In this document: in pieces, positions 7,729 to 37,240 of the stretch | Numbering within the stretch: position 1 is the first letter of the stretch | How the letters are laid out: the number at the start of each line of letters is the position of its first letter | NCBI GenBank assembly: GCA_036001325.1 | Contig: DASYUK010000375.1 | Location: 1,616-65,615, forward strand | Direction: 5' to 3' | DNA length: 64,000 bases | Source: Thermoanaerobaculia bacterium | GTDB lineage: Bacteria > Acidobacteriota > Thermoanaerobaculia > Gp7-AA8 | Translations under genes and position numbers: made by a program | The notes under the pieces: model-generated | What the model was told of the DNA's origin: nothing | Databases searched by the model: none | What the model saw: only the letters and a program-made list of their open reading frames with translations

Positions 7729-7897
7729 GAAGAGTTCTCCCTGCGATCACGAGGCTGTTCACGTTCGGCAGCCCGGCCATCTGAGTAAGTCCAGATCCGT
7801 CGGCTTTGCGCCCCTGCGTCGCCGCAGGTTTGCCCTTATCGTGTGATCGCTTGTTGTAGGACCTTCAACGTGGCGCCGGGCTGTTTTATTCGTAGTT

Positions 7898-28376: not shown

Positions 28377-28429
28377 GTGTAGCGGCGCGCTTCAGCGCGC
28401 CGACGGCGGGCTGAAGCCCGCCGCTACAC
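28377..28429. repeat. GC-rich nested inverted repeat (11-bp outer arms GTGTAGCGGCG/CGCCGCTACAC) ending at the ymdB stop codon
   Basis: GTGTAGCGGCGCGCTTCAGCGCGCCGACGGCGGGCTGAAGCCCGCCGCTACAC, with an inner GCTTCAGC/GCTGAAGC pair. No U-tract; it sits between two co-oriented minus-strand genes. Confidence 0.4.
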
Positions 28430-29217
28430 TACTCCCCAAGGTCTTCCCTAATCCGCACGATCCGCGCGGCCTTACCCGTGTTTTCGTCCAGCTCAATCAT
28501 CGCGCCGCACAATCGCACATCTCGCTTCGCGACCTCGAGCTTGCGCGGCGTGTTCATCAGAAATCGATGCAGCGCTTCTTCGGGACGGAATCCGATGATC
28601 GAGTCGTATGCGCCCGTCATCCCCACATCGGTCTGATAGGCCGTACCGTTCGGCAGGATTCGTTCGTCGGCTGTCGGCACGTGTGTGTGCGTGCCGAGAA
28701 CCGCAGAGACGCGGCCGTCGAGATAGCGACCCATGGCCTGCTTCTCCGATGAGGCCTCGCCGTGGATGTCGACGATGATGACTTTCGCCGACTCGCCGAT
28801 CTCCTTCAGCTCGCGATCGGCGCGGTGGAAGGGGTTGTCGCACGGTGGCATGAAGATGTTGCACATGAGCTGGAGCACGCAGACATTGACGCCGCTCGCC
28901 GTCTGACGAATGACACGTCCTTTCCCCGGATTCCCCTCCGGATAGTTCGCCGGGCGAACGACGTGCGGATAGTGCTCGTAGTTGTCGACGAACTCTTTCT
29001 TGTCCCAGATGTGGTTGCCGGAGGTATAGGCGTTGATCGGAAGCTGATCCAACTCCTCCATGATCGCTTCGGTGACGCCGAAGCCGCCCGCCGCGTTCTC
29101 CACATTGACGATCGTGAAGTCGATTTTCTCCCGATCGATCACGTGCTCGAGCTTCTGATGGAGCGCCCGACGTCCAGGCTGTCCGACGACGTCACCGATG
29201 TAGAGGACTCTGATCAT
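28429..29217 (-). CDS. ymdB: YmdB-type metallophosphoesterase (2',3'-cyclic-nucleotide 2'-phosphodiesterase)
   Basis: MIRVLYIGDVVG...GNHIWDKKE...IIVDIHGEASSEKQAMG...GTHTHVPTADE. Conserved position immediately downstream of rny. Confidence 0.85.
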   Translation of the reverse strand: MIRVLYIGDVVGQPGRRALHQKLEHVIDREKIDFTIVNVENAAGGFGVTEAIMEELDQLPINAYTSGNHIWDKKEFVDNYEHYPHVVRPANYPEGNPGKGRVIRQTASGVNVCVLQLMCNIFMPPCDNPFHRADRELKEIGESAKVIIVDIHGEASSEKQAMGRYLDGRVSAVLGTHTHVPTADERILPNGTAYQTDVGMTGAYDSIIGFRPEEALHRFLMNTPRKLEVAKRDVRLCGAMIELDENTGKAARIVRIREDLGE

Positions 29218-29302: not shown

Positions 29303-30868
29303 CTATTTCGCATACTCCACGGTCCGCATTTCGCGAATGACCGTAACTTTAATCTGCCCCGGATACTGCAACTCGGACTCGATCTTGCGCGCGACATCCT
29401 TCGACAGCCAGATCGACTGTTCGTCGGAGATCTTTTCGGCGTTGACAATGATGCGAAGCTCACGCCCGGCCTGAATGGCGAAACTCTTCGAGACGCCATC
29501 CATGCTGTTGGCGATCGATTCGAGACGCTCGAGACGATGGACGTAGTTCTCGAGGATCTCGCGACGCGCCCCCGGCCGCGCTGCGGACAATGCGTCCGCG
29601 GCGTTGACGAGCACCGCTTCGACAGTCGTAGGATCGTAATCACCGTGATGGCATTCCATCGCGTGAATCACGTCTCGCTTTTCGCCGTACTTGTCGAGGA
29701 CCTGACGCCCGAGCTCGAGGTGCGTGCCTTCCATCTCGCGATCGATCGCCTTGCCGATGTCGTGCAGCAGTCCGCCGCGCTTCGCGATCGTGTCGTTCAC
29801 GCCCAGCTCCACCGCCATCAATGCGGCGAGCTGCGCGACTTCGAGCGAGTGCACGAGCACGTTCTGTCCATACGACGTTCGGTAGCGCAGACGGCCGAGC
29901 AGTTTCAGCACCTCAGGATGAATGTCGGTGATGCCCAGCGAGAATGCCGCCGCCTCTCCCTCCTCGAACAATTTCTGATCGAGCTCCTGACGGACTTTCT
30001 CGACCAGCTCCTCGATGCGCGCCGGATGAATGCGCCCATCCTGCATGAGGCGTTCGAGCGAGATGCGCGCGATTTCGCGGCGAATCGGATCGAAGCCCGA
30101 GAGGATGACCGCCTCCGGGGTGTCGTCGACGATCAGATCGACACCCGTGGCCAGCTCTAAGGCACGAATGTTTCGTCCTTCACGGCCGATGATGCGTCCC
30201 TTCATGTCCTCCGAAGGGAGATCGACGACGGACACAGTGTTCTCAGCGACGTAGTCCGACGCCATCCGCTGAATGGCCATGCCGAGGATTTTTCGGGCGC
30301 GCTGTGTCCCGAGCTCGGTGGCTTCGCTTTCGATCCGCTTGATGATGTTCGCGGCCTCGAGTCTCGCTTCGTTCTCGATGCCGCGGATCAGCTCCTGCCG
30401 CGCCTGATCTGCCGTGAGACCGGCGACCTGCTCGAGTTTGCGGCGCTGATCCTCGATGAGCTGATCGAGCTCGCTTTCCCGCGATTCGACTTTTTTCTCA
30501 CGCTCGCCGACGCCGCGGTCGCGCTTCTCGACTTCGGCCATGCGCGAGTCGAGCTGCTGCGTCTTCTTGTCGAGATTCTCTTCCTTCTGCTGAAGACGCC
30601 GCTCGGCGTTCTTCATCTCGTCGCGACGCTGCTGCGCCTGCTTGTCGAACTCCGACCGCATCTGCAGCAGTTTTTCTTTTGCTTCGAGATCGGCTTCCTT
30701 GACGCGAGCACCGGCCGACTTCCTCGCGTCTTCAACGATCCGCTCCGCTTCGCGCCGCGCTTCGACAACCTGCGCTGTGGCGCGCTTGCGGTACACCATC
30801 GCCCAGAGCAGGGCGAGGACGACGGCGCCTACGACGCCGATCGCAATTCCAACGATGACTGGTACCAA
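29303..30868 (-). CDS. rny: Ribonuclease Y
   Basis: N-terminal TM helix [23 protein letters not shown], coiled-coil region, KH domain ([24 protein letters not shown]) and HD domain ([21 protein letters not shown]). Start at TTG 30868, preceded by AAGGGAGGTG; the track ORF extends to 30964. Confidence 0.85.
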
Positions 30869-30900
30869 ACTGCACCTCCCTTTAGGGAGGCTCGCGCAGT

Positions 30901-31130
30901 GGAGGGATACTCGGAGATCCCCGCCTGAGCCGTGTGGAGGATTCTCACTCGAACCTGTAAACAAACAGGTGGGCGTCCTACTGGGGCCGTTTTGGCTACC
31001 TTCTGAGGTCCCTCGCTACGCTTGGGACGAAGGCGTGCACGCGGCCCGCAGACGCGGACACCCGAAGCAAGAATTACGGTTCAAGCGTTAGATCGTTCAT
31101 CACGCACTCTGCAGGGATTCTCCGAAAATC
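30901..31130 (-). ncRNA. ssrS: Probable 6S RNA (ssrS) downstream of zapA and upstream of rny
   Basis: The minus-strand transcript has a 5' segment UUCGGAGAAUCCCUGC (complement of plus 31111-31126) and a 3' segment GGGAUCUCCGAG (complement of plus about 30905-30916) that can pair as a closing stem. E. coli 6S ends ...CUCGGAGAUUCCCU and lies downstream of zapA (ygfE). Boundaries are approximate. Confidence 0.5.
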
Positions 31131-31149
31131 TGTCTTTACGTCTGTAGGC

Positions 31150-31434
31150 TCAAGTGATTACCTTGTTGAGCCTCTCCGATATTTCCTCCGTTTTCTCGAT
31201 CCATGTCGCCGCGCTCTGGCGCTGCTTCCGGAACCGCGAAAACTCGTCGGCGATATTGAGAGCGGCCAGGATAGCGATTTTCATCGGATCGACCGTGGCG
31301 ACTTCCGCCGCGACCTCTCTCATCCTGGCGTCGACAAACCGCGCAAGCTCCGTTAAATAGTTCGGGTCTCCTTCTCCCCGGACGTTATACGTTTGACCAA
31401 AGATCTCGACCTCGGTCGAATCGTACTTTTCCAT
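31150..31434 (-). CDS. zapA: Cell division protein ZapA
   Basis: 94-aa protein MEKYDSTEVEIFGQTYNVRGEGDPNYLTELARFVDARMREV...: ZapA length and pattern (short beta N-terminus, then coiled coil). Confidence 0.7.
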   Translation of the reverse strand: MEKYDSTEVEIFGQTYNVRGEGDPNYLTELARFVDARMREVAAEVATVDPMKIAILAALNIADEFSRFRKQRQSAATWIEKTEEISERLNKVIT

Positions 31435-31459
31435 GGAAAAGAGACCTGATGTCGCGGCG

Positions 31460-31525
31460 GATTATACCCGTTAGTCGTTAGTCCCTAGTCCTTAGTCGCT
31501 GGTCCCGACTAACGACTAAGGACCA
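31460..31525. promoter_or_regulatory. Heptamer-repeat imperfect palindrome (4 x NTTAGTC, 9-nt spacer, 4 x GACYAAS) in the zapA/imuA divergent intergenic region; candidate operator for the imuA-imuB-dnaE2 cassette
   Basis: GTTAGTC GTTAGTC CCTAGTC CTTAGTC gctggtccc GACTAAC GACTAAG GACCAAG GACTAAG. 23 of 28 arm positions are complementary. It is AT-richer than its surroundings and lies about 70 nt upstream of the imuA start. Confidence 0.5.
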
Positions 31526-31593
31526 AGGACTAAGGTCCGAACATTGCTTTACGCCTGATTACCGCCTATTGTTAGGCGTGCAGGCTCCCCACG

Positions 31594-32415
31594 ATGACTG
31601 CACAGGCTCGACGTTTCCTCTCTCAGTTTCAGCTCCTCGATCTCAGGCCGAGTCGACCGAAACCCACTCTTGTCCCTCCTCTCCCACCTGTAGAGATTCA
31701 GCAGCGCGAGGCTGTCCGCAACCTTCGCGCGGCGCTCGATCCGGCGATCGCGCGAAACGTCATCAGCGCGACCGAGCTGATTCGCGCACTCGAGAAGACG
31801 CGCCGCGAAGACTTCCTTCCTACGGCGATCGACGCGCTCGACGCGCTCCTCGGCGGCGGATTGCGGCGCGGAAAAGTCGTCGAGCTCGTATCGCGGCGCG
31901 CGGTGGGACGATTCTCGATCGTGATGTCGACGCTCGCCGCCGCCACCTCCATCGGCGAGGCGGCAGCGTTGATTGACGTCAGCGATCACTTCGATCCGCA
32001 AATCGCCGACGTCGCCGGCGTCGATCTGCGGCGCTTGCTATGGGTGCGGCCGAAGACGATGAAGCAAGCGGTCATGGCGGCGGAGATGATCACCGTCACC
32101 GGATTCCAGCTCGTCGTCCTCGATGCCGGACTGCATCCCGTGCGCGGTCGTCGCGCGCCTGACGCGGCATGGGTCCGTCTCGCGCGAGCCGCCGAGGCGC
32201 ACGGCGCTGCGATGCTTGTCTCGACGCCATATCCATTCACCGGCACGACCTCCGAAGCCGTGGTGCGCGGCGAGAAAGCGCGCGTGAAGTGGCTCGGCCA
32301 GGGAAAGTCGCCACGATTGCTCGTGGAAGTCACGACGAACTTCCGATTGGAGAAACACCGTCACATGAAGCCGGGAGCCCCCGCGACCTGCGACCTGCGA
32401 CCCGCGATCTCATGA
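31594..32415 (+). CDS. imuA: ImuA (RecA/SulA-like component of the SOS mutagenesis cassette)
   Basis: AIDALDALLGGGLRRGKVVELVSRRAVGRFSIVMSTLAAATSIGEAAALIDVSDHFDPQIADVAGVDLRRLLWVRP...QLVVLDAG matches the ImuA pattern. It is followed by imuB (ATGA overlap) and dnaE2. Confidence 0.7.
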   Translation: MTAQARRFLSQFQLLDLRPSRPKPTLVPPLPPVEIQQREAVRNLRAALDPAIARNVISATELIRALEKTRREDFLPTAIDALDALLGGGLRRGKVVELVSRRAVGRFSIVMSTLAAATSIGEAAALIDVSDHFDPQIADVAGVDLRRLLWVRPKTMKQAVMAAEMITVTGFQLVVLDAGLHPVRGRRAPDAAWVRLARAAEAHGAAMLVSTPYPFTGTTSEAVVRGEKARVKWLGQGKSPRLLVEVTTNFRLEKHRHMKPGAPATCDLRPAIS

Positions 32416-33899
32416 GCAGAATCGCCTGCTTCTACGTCCCCATGTTTCCGCTCGCAGCAAGACTGCGCAGCGAGCCGGAGCTGCTGCAGGAGGCGCTGGC
32501 GATCGTCGAAGGGAACGGCAACAACGCGCAGGTCGTCGCGGCGACGCGGCGCGCGCGAACGAAAGGCATTCGTGCCGGACACTCGCTCGCGCAGGCGCGT
32601 TCGATTCTCCCGAAGCTGATCGCCCGAGGACGTGATGGCGAGTGCGAGAGGACGGCGCAGGAGGCGCTGCTCGAAGTCGCGGAAACCTTCTCGCCGCGTC
32701 TCGAAGATGCGGGGGAAGGCGTCATCTACATCGATATCGCCGGAATGGAACGGCACTTCGATGACGAGCACGAGCTCGGCCGCGCGGCGATTCAATCGGC
32801 GGACAATATCGGATTGCCCGCGCGCGTCGGCGTCGCCGCGAGCAAGCTCGCGGCGCGCGTGGCCGCGGAGCTGCCGAAGTCACCGACGGTCGTCGAGCCG
32901 GGAAAGGAAGCGGAATTCCTCGCGCCACTGCCGCTGACGCGACTCGCGCCGGAGATCGATGCGGCGATGACGCTCCAACGATGGGGCATCACGTCGATCG
33001 GCGATCTCGCTCGTCTGCCGGAAAGCGAAATCGCCAGCCGGCTCGGCGAGACCGGACGCGATCTTCATTACGCGGCGCGGGGCATCGATCCCCGACCGCT
33101 GATCCCGCGCGCGCTGCCGCCGGAGTTTCGTGAAGGGATGGATCTGGAGTGGCCGCTCGTCGCGCTCGAGCCTTTCTTATTCATCGCCGGCGCCGCACTC
33201 GATCGACTGATGAAGCGAATGGAAGCGCAGGGATTCGCCTGCACTCGTCTCGAGGTGACGATGAATCTCGAGCCGGATGGATTTCATGCGCGCGCGATCG
33301 ATCTCCCCGCGCCGACGCGCGACGTGAAGACGATGCTGACGCTGATCCGCCTCGATCTGGAGAAGACGCCTCCCGGCGCGCCGGTCGTGGGATTCGTGAT
33401 CGTCGCCCATCCCGACCGCCCGCGCCGCGCGCAGTTGTCGCTGTTCGGCCCTTCGACGCTTTCGGCGGAGAAACTGGCCACCACAATCGCGCGCCTCGTC
33501 TCACTTCTCGGCGACGGCCGCATCGGGATGGCGACGACGGTCGATGGTCACCTTCCCGACCGCTATTCGATCGCCGATTACGCTCCCCCACCCCCACCCG
33601 ATGCGCGGCGAAAACCGGCGAAGAGTCGCGGACTGCTCGCCGTGCGCGTCTTCCGCCCACCCATCCCGGTGGAAGTGATCACACGCGAAGTCGACGGCGA
33701 GGTGCAGATCGAGCGCATCGAGGGGGAAGGCGAAATCGCGGGAACGGTTCGCATTTCATCCGGTCCGTGGCGCATCGAAGAAGGATGGTGGCGCGACGCG
33801 CCGGCGGCTCGGGAGTATTGGGACGTGGAGGTGGGAGCGAACGTGTATCGCGTGTATGAAACTTCCGGTGGTTGGGTCGTCGATGCGCGATACGACTGA
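32412..33899 (+). CDS. imuB: ImuB (inactive Y-family DNA polymerase-like protein)
   Basis: N-terminus MSRIACFYVPMFPLAARLRSEPELLQEALAIVEG...GIRAGHSLAQARSILPKL resembles the Y-family polymerase N-terminus but lacks the catalytic acidic residues. Sits between imuA and dnaE2. Confidence 0.8.
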   Translation: MSRIACFYVPMFPLAARLRSEPELLQEALAIVEGNGNNAQVVAATRRARTKGIRAGHSLAQARSILPKLIARGRDGECERTAQEALLEVAETFSPRLEDAGEGVIYIDIAGMERHFDDEHELGRAAIQSADNIGLPARVGVAASKLAARVAAELPKSPTVVEPGKEAEFLAPLPLTRLAPEIDAAMTLQRWGITSIGDLARLPESEIASRLGETGRDLHYAARGIDPRPLIPRALPPEFREGMDLEWPLVALEPFLFIAGAALDRLMKRMEAQGFACTRLEVTMNLEPDGFHARAIDLPAPTRDVKTMLTLIRLDLEKTPPGAPVVGFVIVAHPDRPRRAQLSLFGPSTLSAEKLATTIARLVSLLGDGRIGMATTVDGHLPDRYSIADYAPPPPPDARRKPAKSRGLLAVRVFRPPIPVEVITREVDGEVQIERIEGEGEIAGTVRISSGPWRIEEGWWRDAPAAREYWDVEVGANVYRVYETSGGWVVDARYD

Positions 33900-33913
33900 G
33901 GCTTTAGAAGCGA

Positions 33914-33956
33914 AATGTTGAATGTTCAACATTCAACATTGAACATTCAACATTCC
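33914..33956. promoter_or_regulatory. AT-rich heptamer-repeat palindromic array directly upstream of dnaE2 (candidate operator)
   Basis: AATGTTG AATGTTC AACATTC AACATTG AACATTC AACATTC C. The first 27 nt, AATGTTGAATGTTCAACATTCAACATT, form a perfect palindrome around a single central base. Confidence 0.5.
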
Positions 33957-33967
33957 TCGTTCTCCTT

Positions 33968-36900
33968 ATGTCGCACGGCAGAAAACCGACAAGAAACCTC
34001 GACGCTCTCCAGATCACCTACGCTGATCCGGCAGGGCACAAGGAGAAGGTCAAGAACCGTGTGACGAACGTTCCTCTCTCCCGCGAGTACGATCACATTC
34101 CCTTCGTTCCTGAGAAGTTCGGCGGGACGAAACCGAATGAGGAACCGGAGGAAAAGACTCCGAAACTCCGCAACCGTGCAACCGCGAAACGCCCCTACGC
34201 CGAGCTCCGCGCGGCAAGCGCGTTCTCCTTCCTCGACGGTGCTTCGCTGCCCGAAGACTTGATGTACCACGCCGCCGATAAGGATCTGCCGGCGATGGCT
34301 CTCGTCGACACGAATGGTGTGTACGGCGCTCCTCGGTTCTATTCGGCAGCGAAGAAAACAGGGGTCAAGGCGCTCGTCGGAAGCGAACTGGTTCTCGAGA
34401 CCGACCACCGCTTCACAGTCCTCGTCGAAAACCGCACCGGCTATAAAAACCTGTGCAAGCTCGTCACGGCTGGAGCGGCCGGGCGCGAGAAAGGGAAAGC
34501 GCGCTTCAACTGGGGATTGATCGAGCAGTACAACGAAGGTCTGCACTGCCTCACGCGTGCCGATGACGAGACCATCAACAAAATCGCCGGCATTTTCAAA
34601 AACAGAACGCACCTCGAGTTGCAGCGACATTTCAATCGCGACGAAGAGCGTCACAACATCCGCCTGGTCGATCTCGCGCGGCGTCTGAAGCTGCCGATCG
34701 TCGCGACGAACGGCGTCCGCTACGCCCGCGCACAGGATAAGGAGCTGCACGACGTCCTCACGTGCATCCGCGAGACGACACACGTCGACAAAGCGGGCCG
34801 CCTCCTGGGCGTGAATCGGGAGCGCTACGTCAAGACCGCCGATGAGATGTGCCGCCTGTTCGCCGATCTGCCGGAAGCGATCGATGGCGCCTGGTCGCTC
34901 GCCAACACGCTCGACTTCACGCTCGCCGACCTCGGCTACCAGTTCCCTGACTATCCGCTGCCGCCGGGAGAGACTACAACATCGTTTCTGCGCAAGATCG
35001 CCTGGAACTCGGCAAAGTCGCGTTTCCGTCCGCTCACGGCGAGAGCGCAGTCGCAGATCGAGAAAGAGCTGAACATGATCGAGAAGCTCGATCTGGCCGG
35101 CTACTTCCTCATCGTCTGGGACATCGTTCAGTTCTGCAATCGCGAAAAGATCATCGTGCAGGGCCGCGGCTCGGCGGCCAACAGCGCCGTCTGCTACGCC
35201 CTCGGCATCACCGCGGTCGATCCGGTGAAGATGGAGCTGCTCTTCGAGCGCTTCCTCTCCGAAGAGCGCGGAGAGTGGCCGGACATCGATCTCGATCTCC
35301 CCTCCGGCGATCAGCGCGAGAAAGTCATCCAGCACGTCTACAAAACGTACGGCGTGCACGCCGCGGCGATGACCGCGAACGTCATCACGTATCGCGATCG
35401 CTCCGCGGCGCGCGAAGTTGGCAAAGCGCTCGGCTATTCGCTCGAGCAGGCCGACAAACTCTCGAAATGCGTCTCGACCTGGAACTTCGGCGAGATCCGC
35501 GAAGCGATGGAGAACCTGCCGGGTGAGCTCGAGAAAACGGGATTCGATCCCGCTGATCTCCGCGTACAACACTTCATGCGCCTCTACATGCACATCCAGA
35601 ATCTGCCGCGACATCTCGGCCAGCACTCCGGCGGCATGGTCATGGCGAAAGGACGGCTCGACGAAGTCGTGCCGCTCGAGCCGGCATCGATGCCCGGCCG
35701 CGTCGTCATTCAGTGGGACAAGGACGACTGTGCCGATCTCGGCCTCATCAAAGTCGACCTCCTCGGCCTCGGCATGCTGGCGGCGATCGAAGAGGCACTG
35801 CCGCTCATCCGCGACAACGAAGGAAAAGAAGTCGATCTCGCCCATCTGCCTCAGAACGATCCGCTCGTTTACAAGATGCTGAACGAGGCTGACACGATCG
35901 GCATGTTCCAGGTGGAGAGCCGCGCGCAGATGGCTTCACTGCCGAGGAATGCGCCGAAGAAGTTCTACGACATCGTCGTGCAGGTGGCGATCATCCGTCC
36001 CGGCCCGATTGTCGGCGGCATGATCCGTCCGTTCTTCGATCGGCGTCAGGGGCGCGCGCCGGTCGAGTATCCGCACCCGTGCCTCGAGCCGATTCTCAAG
36101 CGCACGCTCGGCGTACCGCTGTTCCAGGAGCAGCTTCTCCGTATCGCGATGGTCGCGGCCAATTTTACCGGCGGCGAAGCCGAAGAGCTGCGAAGAGCGA
36201 TGGGATTCAAGAGGTCGATGGAGCGGATGCACGAGATCGAAGGACGGCTGCGCGCGGGGATGACTACGAACGGCATCGATGCGAAAGCGCAGGATCAGAT
36301 CGTCAAGTCGATCACGTCGTTCGCGCTCTACGGCTTTCCCGAATCGCACGCGGCGAGCTTCGCGCTGATCGCGTATGCGAGCGCGTACATCAAAGCGCGA
36401 CATCCGGCGGCTTTTTATGTCTCGCTGCTGAACGCGTGGCCGATGGGTTTCTATCATCCGGCGACGCTCGTCAAAGATGCGCAGCGGCATGACACCGAGG
36501 TGCTTCCGATCGACATGAATCATTCTGGTTGGAAGTGCCGTTGGGAAAACGGCGGCGTACGTCTCGGACTGCGATTCGTTAAAGGGCTGCGCGAAGCGAC
36601 GGCAAAGAAGATCGAAGCGAATCAGCCATTCCAATCGACGGAAGATCTCGCCTATCGGTGCAAGCTGCGCGACGATCAGCTCACGAAGCTCGCCTACGCC
36701 GGGGCACTGAGCTCACTCGGACTCACGAGACGAGGGGCGTTGTGGCAGGCGTCGAAAGCGGCAAAGCCCGCGGGCGAACTCTTCGAAGGACGCGCCGCCG
36801 AGGGCGGCGGCGCTCCACTGAAGGAGATGTCAGAGATCCAGAACACCATGGCTGACTACCACGCGATGGAGCTCACGACGGGGCCGCATCTCGTCGAGCA

Positions 36901-37240
36901 CTTCCGCGCTGAGCTCATGAGTCAGAAGATCCTCTCCGCCGCGGACCTCGCGCGCATTCCAACCGGTCGCCGCGTCACGACCGCAGGAGCAGTGATCGTC
37001 CGCCAGCGCCCGGGCACCGCAAAAGGATTCGTGTTCCTCACCCTCGAAGATGAAACCGGTCTCTCGCAGGCCATCGTCAGTCCGAAACTTTTCAGCGAGC
37101 AGCGTTCGACGATCCTCGGCCATTCGGGCCTGATCGTCGAAGGAATCGTGCAGAACACCGATGGGCAGTGTTCCGTCAAAGCGGAGCGTTTCTGGCCCTT
37201 GCAGGGACTCGAGGACATTCGCAGTCACGACTTCCACTAG
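33968..37240 (+). CDS. dnaE2: Error-prone DNA polymerase DnaE2 (ImuC), DNA polymerase III alpha-like
   Basis: PHP domain beginning YAELRAASAFSFLDGAS, and pol III alpha core motifs. 1090 aa as called. The first ~60 residues are Lys-rich, lower-GC and precede the PHP domain, so the true start may be internal (for example a GTG near 34056 with an AAGGAGAAGG upstream). Confidence 0.85.
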   Translation: MSHGRKPTRNLDALQITYADPAGHKEKVKNRVTNVPLSREYDHIPFVPEKFGGTKPNEEPEEKTPKLRNRATAKRPYAELRAASAFSFLDGASLPEDLMYHAADKDLPAMALVDTNGVYGAPRFYSAAKKTGVKALVGSELVLETDHRFTVLVENRTGYKNLCKLVTAGAAGREKGKARFNWGLIEQYNEGLHCLTRADDETINKIAGIFKNRTHLELQRHFNRDEERHNIRLVDLARRLKLPIVATNGVRYARAQDKELHDVLTCIRETTHVDKAGRLLGVNRERYVKTADEMCRLFADLPEAIDGAWSLANTLDFTLADLGYQFPDYPLPPGETTTSFLRKIAWNSAKSRFRPLTARAQSQIEKELNMIEKLDLAGYFLIVWDIVQFCNREKIIVQGRGSAANSAVCYALGITAVDPVKMELLFERFLSEERGEWPDIDLDLPSGDQREKVIQHVYKTYGVHAAAMTANVITYRDRSAAREVGKALGYSLEQADKLSKCVSTWNFGEIREAMENLPGELEKTGFDPADLRVQHFMRLYMHIQNLPRHLGQHSGGMVMAKGRLDEVVPLEPASMPGRVVIQWDKDDCADLGLIKVDLLGLGMLAAIEEALPLIRDNEGKEVDLAHLPQNDPLVYKMLNEADTIGMFQVESRAQMASLPRNAPKKFYDIVVQVAIIRPGPIVGGMIRPFFDRRQGRAPVEYPHPCLEPILKRTLGVPLFQEQLLRIAMVAANFTGGEAEELRRAMGFKRSMERMHEIEGRLRAGMTTNGIDAKAQDQIVKSITSFALYGFPESHAASFALIAYASAYIKARHPAAFYVSLLNAWPMGFYHPATLVKDAQRHDTEVLPIDMNHSGWKCRWENGGVRLGLRFVKGLREATAKKIEANQPFQSTEDLAYRCKLRDDQLTKLAYAGALSSLGLTRRGALWQASKAAKPAGELFEGRAAEGGGAPLKEMSEIQNTMADYHAMELTTGPHLVEHFRAELMSQKILSAADLARIPTGRRVTTAGAVIVRQRPGTAKGFVFLTLEDETGLSQAIVSPKLFSEQRSTILGHSGLIVEGIVQNTDGQCSVKAERFWPLQGLEDIRSHDFH

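Follow-up and report, generated by a model that had tools for sequence, protein, structure and literature searches.

A 6S RNA gene predicted between zapA and rny in a Thermoanaerobaculia bacterium

Genes of the zapA-rny locus and the RNA between them

We analyzed a stretch of 64,000 nucleotides (the window) from a Thermoanaerobaculia bacterium, a member of the Acidobacteriota. On its minus strand, zapA (31150-31434, 94 amino acids; Pfam PF05164, E = 4e-18) ends with a TGA stop codon at 31152-31150. Further downstream lies rny (29303-30868, 521 amino acids), which was assigned to RNase Y by homology and by the Pfam matches of its N-terminal region, KH and HD domains (E = 1e-51). It is followed by the metallophosphoesterase gene ymdB (28429-29217; Pfam PF13277, E = 3e-101). 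The gap downstream of zapA, given as about 280 nt in the first-pass annotation, measures 281 nt from the zapA stop (31150) to the TTG start codon of rny (30868), and it contains no credible open reading frame. The start at TTG 30868 was placed by homology: related proteins align from residue 1, and the motif GGGAGG precedes it at 30880-30875. A longer rny reading frame of 553 amino acids from TTG 30964 (29303-30964, minus strand) was considered and set aside, since homology favors TTG 30868. The longer frame would overlap the 3′ half of the RNA gene described below, and gene callers that choose the longest frame would mask this gene under rny.

Several other features were observed in the window. 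Just upstream of the -10 element of zapA, an inverted repeat at 31471-31533 has 28-nt arms composed of tandem 7-nt units (TTAGTCN). Relatives possess hairpins of the same build with entirely different heptamers (GAGTGAA/TTCACTC in L025 and CCACTGA in L005). Diverging from zapA on the plus strand, the region 31594-37240 looks like an imuA-imuB-dnaE2 mutagenesis cassette, with a RecA-like protein of 273 amino acids (Pfam RecA, E = 8.5e-12), an IMS-family protein of 576 amino acids (E = 2.4e-20) and a 1090-amino acid reading frame. Rfam matches were also obtained for a c-di-GMP-I-GGC riboswitch aptamer (7763-7843, minus strand; 61.5 bits against a threshold of 59) and, near the end of the window, for group II intron domains 1-4 (63782-63951, plus strand; 108 bits). 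A tRNA gene is located at 51099-51172 on the minus strand (72 bits).

6S RNA restrains RNA polymerase by imitating the structure of an open promoter. A probable 6S RNA between zapA and rny had been proposed in the first-pass annotation, together with a search by the Rfam model RF00013. We therefore scanned the whole window with Rfam, and the proposal was borne out. RF00013 (6S/SsrS) matched 30914-31120 on the predicted minus strand with 77.6 bits (E = 1.4e-13), above the gathering score of 46.4 bits, and all 187 model positions (1-187) are included in the alignment. No RF00013 match was detected on the plus strand in the same scan. With a clade-specific covariance model (R1), the region 30906-31128 scored 197 bits. 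The Rfam alignment maps 50 pairs onto the RNA, 44 of which are standard. Furthermore, the folding energy of the whole 220-nt stretch is -106 kcal/mol, as compared with -75 ± 4.4 kcal/mol for shuffled sequences (z = -7.1), and none of 200 shuffles was as stable. The gene order on this strand is zapA, 29 nt, 6S, 45 nt, rny and then ymdB, with the 45 nt counted from the Rfam match.

A protein search with RNase Y yielded loci from Thermoanaerobaculia metagenome-assembled genomes with up to 92% identity, which places the window in this class. Directly upstream of rny and on the same strand, RF00013 matches were found in 29 related acidobacterial loci, which belong to Thermoanaerobaculia, Holophagae-like and Sulfomarinibacteraceae genomes. 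The clade-specific model recovered all 29 and added L034 and two copies whose 5′ parts are cut at contig ends. The arrangement with 6S flanked by zapA and rny is thereby seen in 30 or more loci of Acidobacteriota; where the upstream gene was checked (26 loci), it was zapA without exception. The spacing from zapA to 6S is 28-39 nt in the subclade of the window and about 50-100 nt elsewhere, as judged by tblastn. When the Holophagae-like loci were read through to the stop codon of zapA, 6S was found to begin only 4-6 nt past it.

The Rfam structure was mapped on an alignment of 26 sequences, and pairs formable in most sequences were kept as consensus pairs. In an alignment of 30 sequences, which is model-based and fitted to the covariance model, 91.4% of the pair cells were standard, whereas the value was 37-50% when the partners were slid by 1-3 columns. 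Compensatory (double-sided) changes were observed in 16 of the 40 pairs. The covariation score was 0.228 against 0.119 for shuffled alignments, and 0.228 was reached in none of 500 shuffles.

The complementarity of the two ends might simply be a chance inverted repeat in intergenic DNA without any RNA function: the window is rich in G+C, and long stretches free of reading frames often fold well. The stability beyond all 200 shuffles, the conservation over 30 loci with compensatory changes and the Rfam E value all speak against this explanation. Together with the conservation of the outer stem described below, the Rfam match and the covariation rule out chance complementarity, the probability of which we consider negligible.

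Based on the full-length RF00013 match, the z-score of the fold, the homologues upstream of rny, the covariation, the adjacency to zapA, and the release hairpin and template-site alignment described in the next section, we conclude that 30910-31126 on the minus strand is very probably the ssrS gene for 6S RNA of this bacterium. The RNA belongs to a well-known family and is ordinary as such; mildly unusual is only that rny comes directly after it. The RNA can be found by standard Rfam-based annotation; the seemingly empty gap between zapA and rny is now filled by a standard gene.

Closing stem, central bubble and a predicted release switch

The first-pass annotation had pointed out complementary terminal segments on the minus strand, and these were confirmed as a closing stem beyond the expectation from shuffling. 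The 5′ strand is UUCGGAGAAUCCCUGC (31111-31126) and the 3′ strand is GGGAUCUCCGAG (30910-30921), both of which are conserved in homologues. Their pairs are, in order, U·G, U-A, C-G, G-C, G-C, A-U, G-C and A-U, then a single bulged A, and then U-A, C-G, C-G and C-G, giving 12 pairs in total. In the window, the two ends form a duplex with an energy of -20.5 kcal/mol. In 30 homologues, the mean energy of the closing-stem duplex is -16.5 kcal/mol, versus -10.1 ± 2.9 kcal/mol with the 3′ flank shuffled. In each of the 30 homologues, GCGGGG is the partner of CCCUGC. Moreover, the outer stem covaries between subclades (CGGAG/CUCCG, GGAGGUCCC/GGGACCUCC and GGCACCC/GGGxGCC). These complementary ends are thus predicted to be an outer extension of the 6S closing stem by a few pairs past the Rfam model. 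If both strands of the outer closing stem are included (30910-31126, minus strand), the RNA would be about 217 nt long, with its ends deduced from the pairing.

Inside the closing stem, the inner stem that borders the central bubble consists of UUGAACC (31078-31084) and GGUUCGA (30949-30955), as placed by the Rfam and comparative alignments. This helix (helix 2) is nearly invariant in homologues, and 94% of its cells are paired. The 5′ strand of the central bubble is GUAAUUCUUGCUUC (31064-31077), placed by the Rfam alignment and by comparison with E. coli. On the 3′ side (30953-30970), comparative pairing identified a hairpin formed by ACCUGU (30970-30965), the loop UUGUUU and ACAGGU (30958-30953). 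In this 3′-bubble hairpin, 93% of the cells are paired, as compared with 16-49% in the slid controls, and two pairs show double changes. Bases 30953-30955 are common to the hairpin and the inner stem; therefore, the two helices are mutually exclusive.

A fold with a central bubble flanked by long stems had been suggested as a further check, and the outcome depended on the method. In the comparative consensus, the closing stem, inner stem, central bubble (about 14 and 15 unpaired bases) and apical stem form a long rod, and the bubble is also visible in the Rfam alignment. RNAalifold, applied independently to a MAFFT alignment, gave the same closing and inner stems, with the bubble strands unpaired with each other. 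In contrast, the minimum-energy fold of the single sequence is a rod, but part of the central bubble is closed. This fold is not usable as a test of the bubble, which can be seen only in the Rfam alignment and the comparative consensus.

The segment UUGAACCG(A)U in the bubble aligns with the template region CUGAGCCGAU of E. coli 6S RNA, and some relatives contain CCGAUAU, which is identical to E. coli. Product RNA (pRNA) synthesis in E. coli starts at U44 in CCGAU. By this alignment, the start is predicted to be opposite U31076. A release switch triggered by the product RNA is known for the 6S RNAs of E. coli and B. subtilis. The overlap between the 3′-bubble hairpin and the inner stem is the arrangement expected for such a switch, which suggests, by analogy, the same function here.

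By analogy with the family, the RNA would work as follows. The 6S rod would mimic an open promoter and occupy the active site of RNA polymerase carrying the housekeeping sigma factor, and it would thereby damp transcription when growth slows. On a nutrient upshift, the polymerase would copy the 5′ strand of the bubble from near U31076 and make a short product RNA that begins with approximately 5′-ACGGUUCAAG. As a result of this synthesis, the inner stem would open, its 3′ strand would become available to complete the ACCUGU/ACAGGU hairpin, and the polymerase would be released.

Transcription of the locus and the leader of rny

A perfect -10 hexamer, TATAAT, is located at 31461-31466 on the minus strand, 27 nt before the ATG of zapA, and it is likely the promoter of a zapA-6S(-rny) unit. 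TATAAT or TATACT is found at the same place in all close relatives, and TGnTATAAT in several. In a sister clade, TTGACTC-N17-TAGACT is present upstream of zapA. The 20-30 nt before 6S vary among close relatives and contain no conserved promoter hexamers. When this region was inspected by hand, TTGAGC and TAAAGA were seen only 9 nt apart, and nothing was conserved in close relatives. A promoter and terminator scan of 30600-31700 detected no promoter-like site and no terminator at the ends of 6S; the same scan also misses the conserved TATAAT of zapA, which has a poor -35 element, and thus cannot settle the architecture. Since acidobacterial promoters are poorly defined, a consensus scan could miss one. 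The sequence after the closing stem in the window is GAGUAUCCC, which has neither a U-run nor a terminator-like site, and no G+C-rich hairpin followed by a U-run, as in an intrinsic terminator or attenuator, was found upstream of rny in the window. Because the sole conserved promoter element is upstream of zapA, we lean, from the layout, towards excision of 6S from a zapA-6S(-rny) transcript of a zapA-6S-rny-ymdB operon. A polymerase inhibitor and the main decay-initiating nuclease would then be encoded in one probable operon.

Hairpins are predicted on both sides of the 6S gene. The first, GGCUCAA...UUGAGCC (31147-31172, minus strand), was found by eye and covers the TGA stop codon of zapA. 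It is followed by an A/U-rich spacer of about 20 nt and then by 6S. By eye, its arms covary in relatives (CAAC/GUUG versus CAGC/GCUG) despite codon changes, and it may be a processing or stabilizing signal. A hairpin is also observed at the 3′ end of zapA in the Holophagae-like and sister-clade loci. The second hairpin (30869-30900, minus strand) is predicted in the spacer between 6S and rny, where the rny ribosome-binding site GGGAGG (30880-30875) pairs with CCUCCC (30890-30885) and the helix is extended by ACUGC/GCAGU. Of about 40 loci from Acidobacteriota, nearly all are predicted to form a corresponding hairpin; its position is kept, and the sequences and loop sizes differ. Such a hairpin was also seen by eye in the Aminicenantes-type loci L048, L058, L071 and L075. 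Just past 6S, at about 30905-30901, CCUCC occurs once more. Both hairpins of the window, along with the promoter evidence above, favor the operon.

It is possible, and we hold it to be somewhat doubtful, that 6S is an independent unit. It would be transcribed from a promoter of its own, so far unrecognised, within the last part of zapA, and would end at the closing stem, while rny would be started separately. This alternative concerns the operon only and not the identity of the RNA; 6S would then be outside the leader of rny. The homologue in L061 has a clear promoter, TTGACC-17-TAAGAT, 7 nt before its 6S and placed to start there (L061:3590-3650), whereas nothing comparable is present in the clade of the window, in which the 20-30 nt before 6S are unconserved. 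Likewise, U-runs right after the closing stem in about half of the relatives, with runs of 5-7 in L001, L010, L011, L015 and L043, suggest termination there, and GAGUAUCCC in the window offers no such signal. E. coli ssrS has its own promoters and keeps them despite a gap of only 41 nt. However, the 4-6 nt after the zapA stop in the Holophagae-like loci argue against a separate start, and the 45-nt spacer between 6S and rny is filled by the ribosome-binding-site hairpin, which leaves no room for a promoter.

If 6S is instead excised from the operon transcript, its location in the leader of rny, as the first-pass annotation had supposed, is plausible from the geometry. The idea that RNase Y itself processes this 6S, which had been suggested at the same time, is speculative. 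The B. subtilis enzyme regulates the rny mRNA through cleavage of the 5′ UTR (PMC10303841). For the 6S RNAs of B. subtilis, a specific involvement of RNase Y in their maturation or decay could not be demonstrated, and the 5′ maturation depends on RNase J1 (PMC10578484).

The structured stretch might also be only a cis-acting 5′ leader of rny, for example a target for autoregulation by RNase Y, which neither accumulates nor acts on RNA polymerase. Only 45 nt separate it from rny, both are on one strand and no terminator intervenes; the cutting of the B. subtilis 5′ UTR provides a precedent; and in a sister clade this slot is occupied by another structured element that is also conserved. Nevertheless, the full-length RF00013 match includes the bubble-flanking sequences, and the template site and release hairpin, which matter for the polymerase and not for a leader, are conserved. 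Furthermore, the 6S gene of E. coli also precedes a gene with which it is co-transcribed, yet the RNA acts in trans (PMC7641849). Thus, we judge a purely cis-acting leader to be very improbable and retain the assignment as 6S RNA.

B. subtilis rny mutants are rescued by lower RNA polymerase activity (PMC8266666). In the light of this rescue, a physical linkage of 6S and rny would be sensible as a coupling of the two, although such a coupling is speculation. We can formulate a more specific proposal, which we regard as unlikely. In Thermoanaerobaculia and Holophagae-like Acidobacteriota, 6S might not be a gene standing by itself; it would be released from the transcript of a zapA-ssrS-rny-ymdB operon. 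The A/U-rich spacers next to the closing stem would be the cutting sites of RNase Y, or of a nuclease working with it. A single cut would have three effects: 6S would be matured, the zapA mRNA would be separated and end with its 3′ hairpin, and the rny mRNA would receive its 5′ end close to the ribosome-binding-site hairpin. If this were true, the global capacity for transcription (6S on RNA polymerase) would be tied directly to global mRNA decay (RNase Y). The suppressor genetics of B. subtilis suggest that the balance between transcription and decay is under strong selection (PMC8266666).

Related loci and comparison with known systems

The observations on the neighborhood are more unusual than the window 6S itself. 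In a sister Thermoanaerobaculia clade (L018-L024, L026-L031 and L047), zapA is beside rny and RNase Y is about 63% identical, and no 6S is present there. No 6S was detected in this slot at the gathering score or with the clade model, and no Rfam match was obtained at E ≤ 10 except for one chance hit of 21 nt. Instead, the slot contains a conserved element of about 145 nt with the pattern GGCGnGGCGUCGGC ... ACACGA ... ACGAGUGG ... CGGAAG/CUUCCG ... UCGUGUAGCC (for example, L019:3806-3954 and L021:3717-3861). It was seen neither in the window nor in any of the other loci. We considered that it might be a diverged 6S and rejected this idea, as it has no 6S match and its fold is branched instead of a rod. 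It could be an unknown small RNA or a leader of rny. In the sister clade, 6S at the zapA-rny site is swapped for this unrecognised conserved element.

Outside the Acidobacteriota, no 6S was detected at the rny locus with RF00013 and the clade model in loci of Geobacterales, Clostridia, Aminicenantes, Omnitrophota and Chloroflexota. In the Geobacteraceae locus L051, zapA, a 340-nt gap (L051:3052-3392), ygfA and rny are arranged on the same strand. This ygfA encodes 5-formyl-THF cyclo-ligase (Pfam E = 2e-42), and among the loci examined, ygfA was found between zapA and rny only in L051. The order zapA-gap-ygfA-rny bridges the E. coli layout (zapA-ssrS-ygfA) and the acidobacterial layout (zapA-ssrS-rny). 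The simplest reading is that an old zapA-ssrS-ygfA-rny array lost ygfA in the Acidobacteriota. This reading is tentative, because Rfam detected nothing in the gap of the Geobacteraceae locus, even with a cutoff of E ≤ 10; the fold of the whole gap has z = -0.5, and its sequence looks branched, not like a simple 6S-like rod. The gap of about 340 nt, noted in the Geobacterales loci L051, L059, L060, L064 and L067, contains a conserved sequence with complementary ends (GGUCUCUU..GGGAGA / UCUCCC..AGAGAACC). This sequence could be an unrecognised RNA where ssrS is located in E. coli.

The adjacency of zapA and ssrS is a known pattern of beta- and gamma-proteobacteria (PMC7641849). The gene order in E. 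coli K-12 is zapA, 41 nt, ssrS, 75 nt and fau; accordingly, the synteny argument of the first-pass annotation, that E. coli 6S is immediately downstream of zapA, is correct. The present locus extends this adjacency to the Acidobacteriota, with rny replacing ygfA downstream. In the literature searched, we found no description of a linkage between ssrS and rny; a prior description is possible.

The window 6S and E. coli 6S belong to the same Rfam family and have the same upstream neighbor and strand, with spacings of 29 and 45 nt in the window versus 41 and 75 nt in E. coli. In both, a protein gene comes next with no terminator between, and a bubble-flanking motif is common to the two RNAs (CUGAGCCGAU in E. 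coli and UUGAACCGU in the window). The close resemblance to the terminal sequence of E. coli 6S that had been reported holds only in part. The sequence CUCGGAGAUUCCCU does occur at the 3′ end of E. coli ssrS and agrees with the 5′ strand of the window RNA at 12 of 14 positions; however, it is the 3′ strand there, whereas the matching UUCGGAGAAUCCCU is the 5′ strand in the window. This identity reflects a near-palindromic stem and not positional homology. The homologous 3′ ends are also similar (AUCUCCGAGUAUC in the window and AUCUCGGAGAUUC in E. coli).

The two systems differ in several respects. The window RNA is about 30 nt longer than E. coli 6S, since its apical stem is longer and its closing stem is extended outwards. 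Unlike E. coli ssrS, it has no promoter that could be recognised directly upstream. The downstream gene is rny, followed by ymdB, instead of the 5-formyl-THF cyclo-ligase gene fau (ygfA), and neither fau/ygfA nor a gene for an EVE-domain protein was found downstream of ssrS in the window. E. coli 6S is cut from ssrS-fau transcripts and matured by RNase E/G. E. coli is not known to have RNase Y.

In B. subtilis, the rearrangement of 6S-1 RNA driven by the product RNA uses a 3′-bubble hairpin. The window 6S resembles 6S-1 (bsrA) in being a rod with a central bubble, and the B. subtilis host possesses RNase Y. In contrast to the window, the 6S genes of B. subtilis adjoin neither rny nor zapA. The comparison extends to the rny 5′ UTR of B. 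subtilis: in both organisms, RNase Y could plausibly act on the sequence that precedes its own gene, and the rny-ymdB pair is common to them. The B. subtilis 5′ UTR differs in that it is not a 6S RNA, and autoregulation there occurs via cuts in the UTR and the early coding region (PMC10303841).
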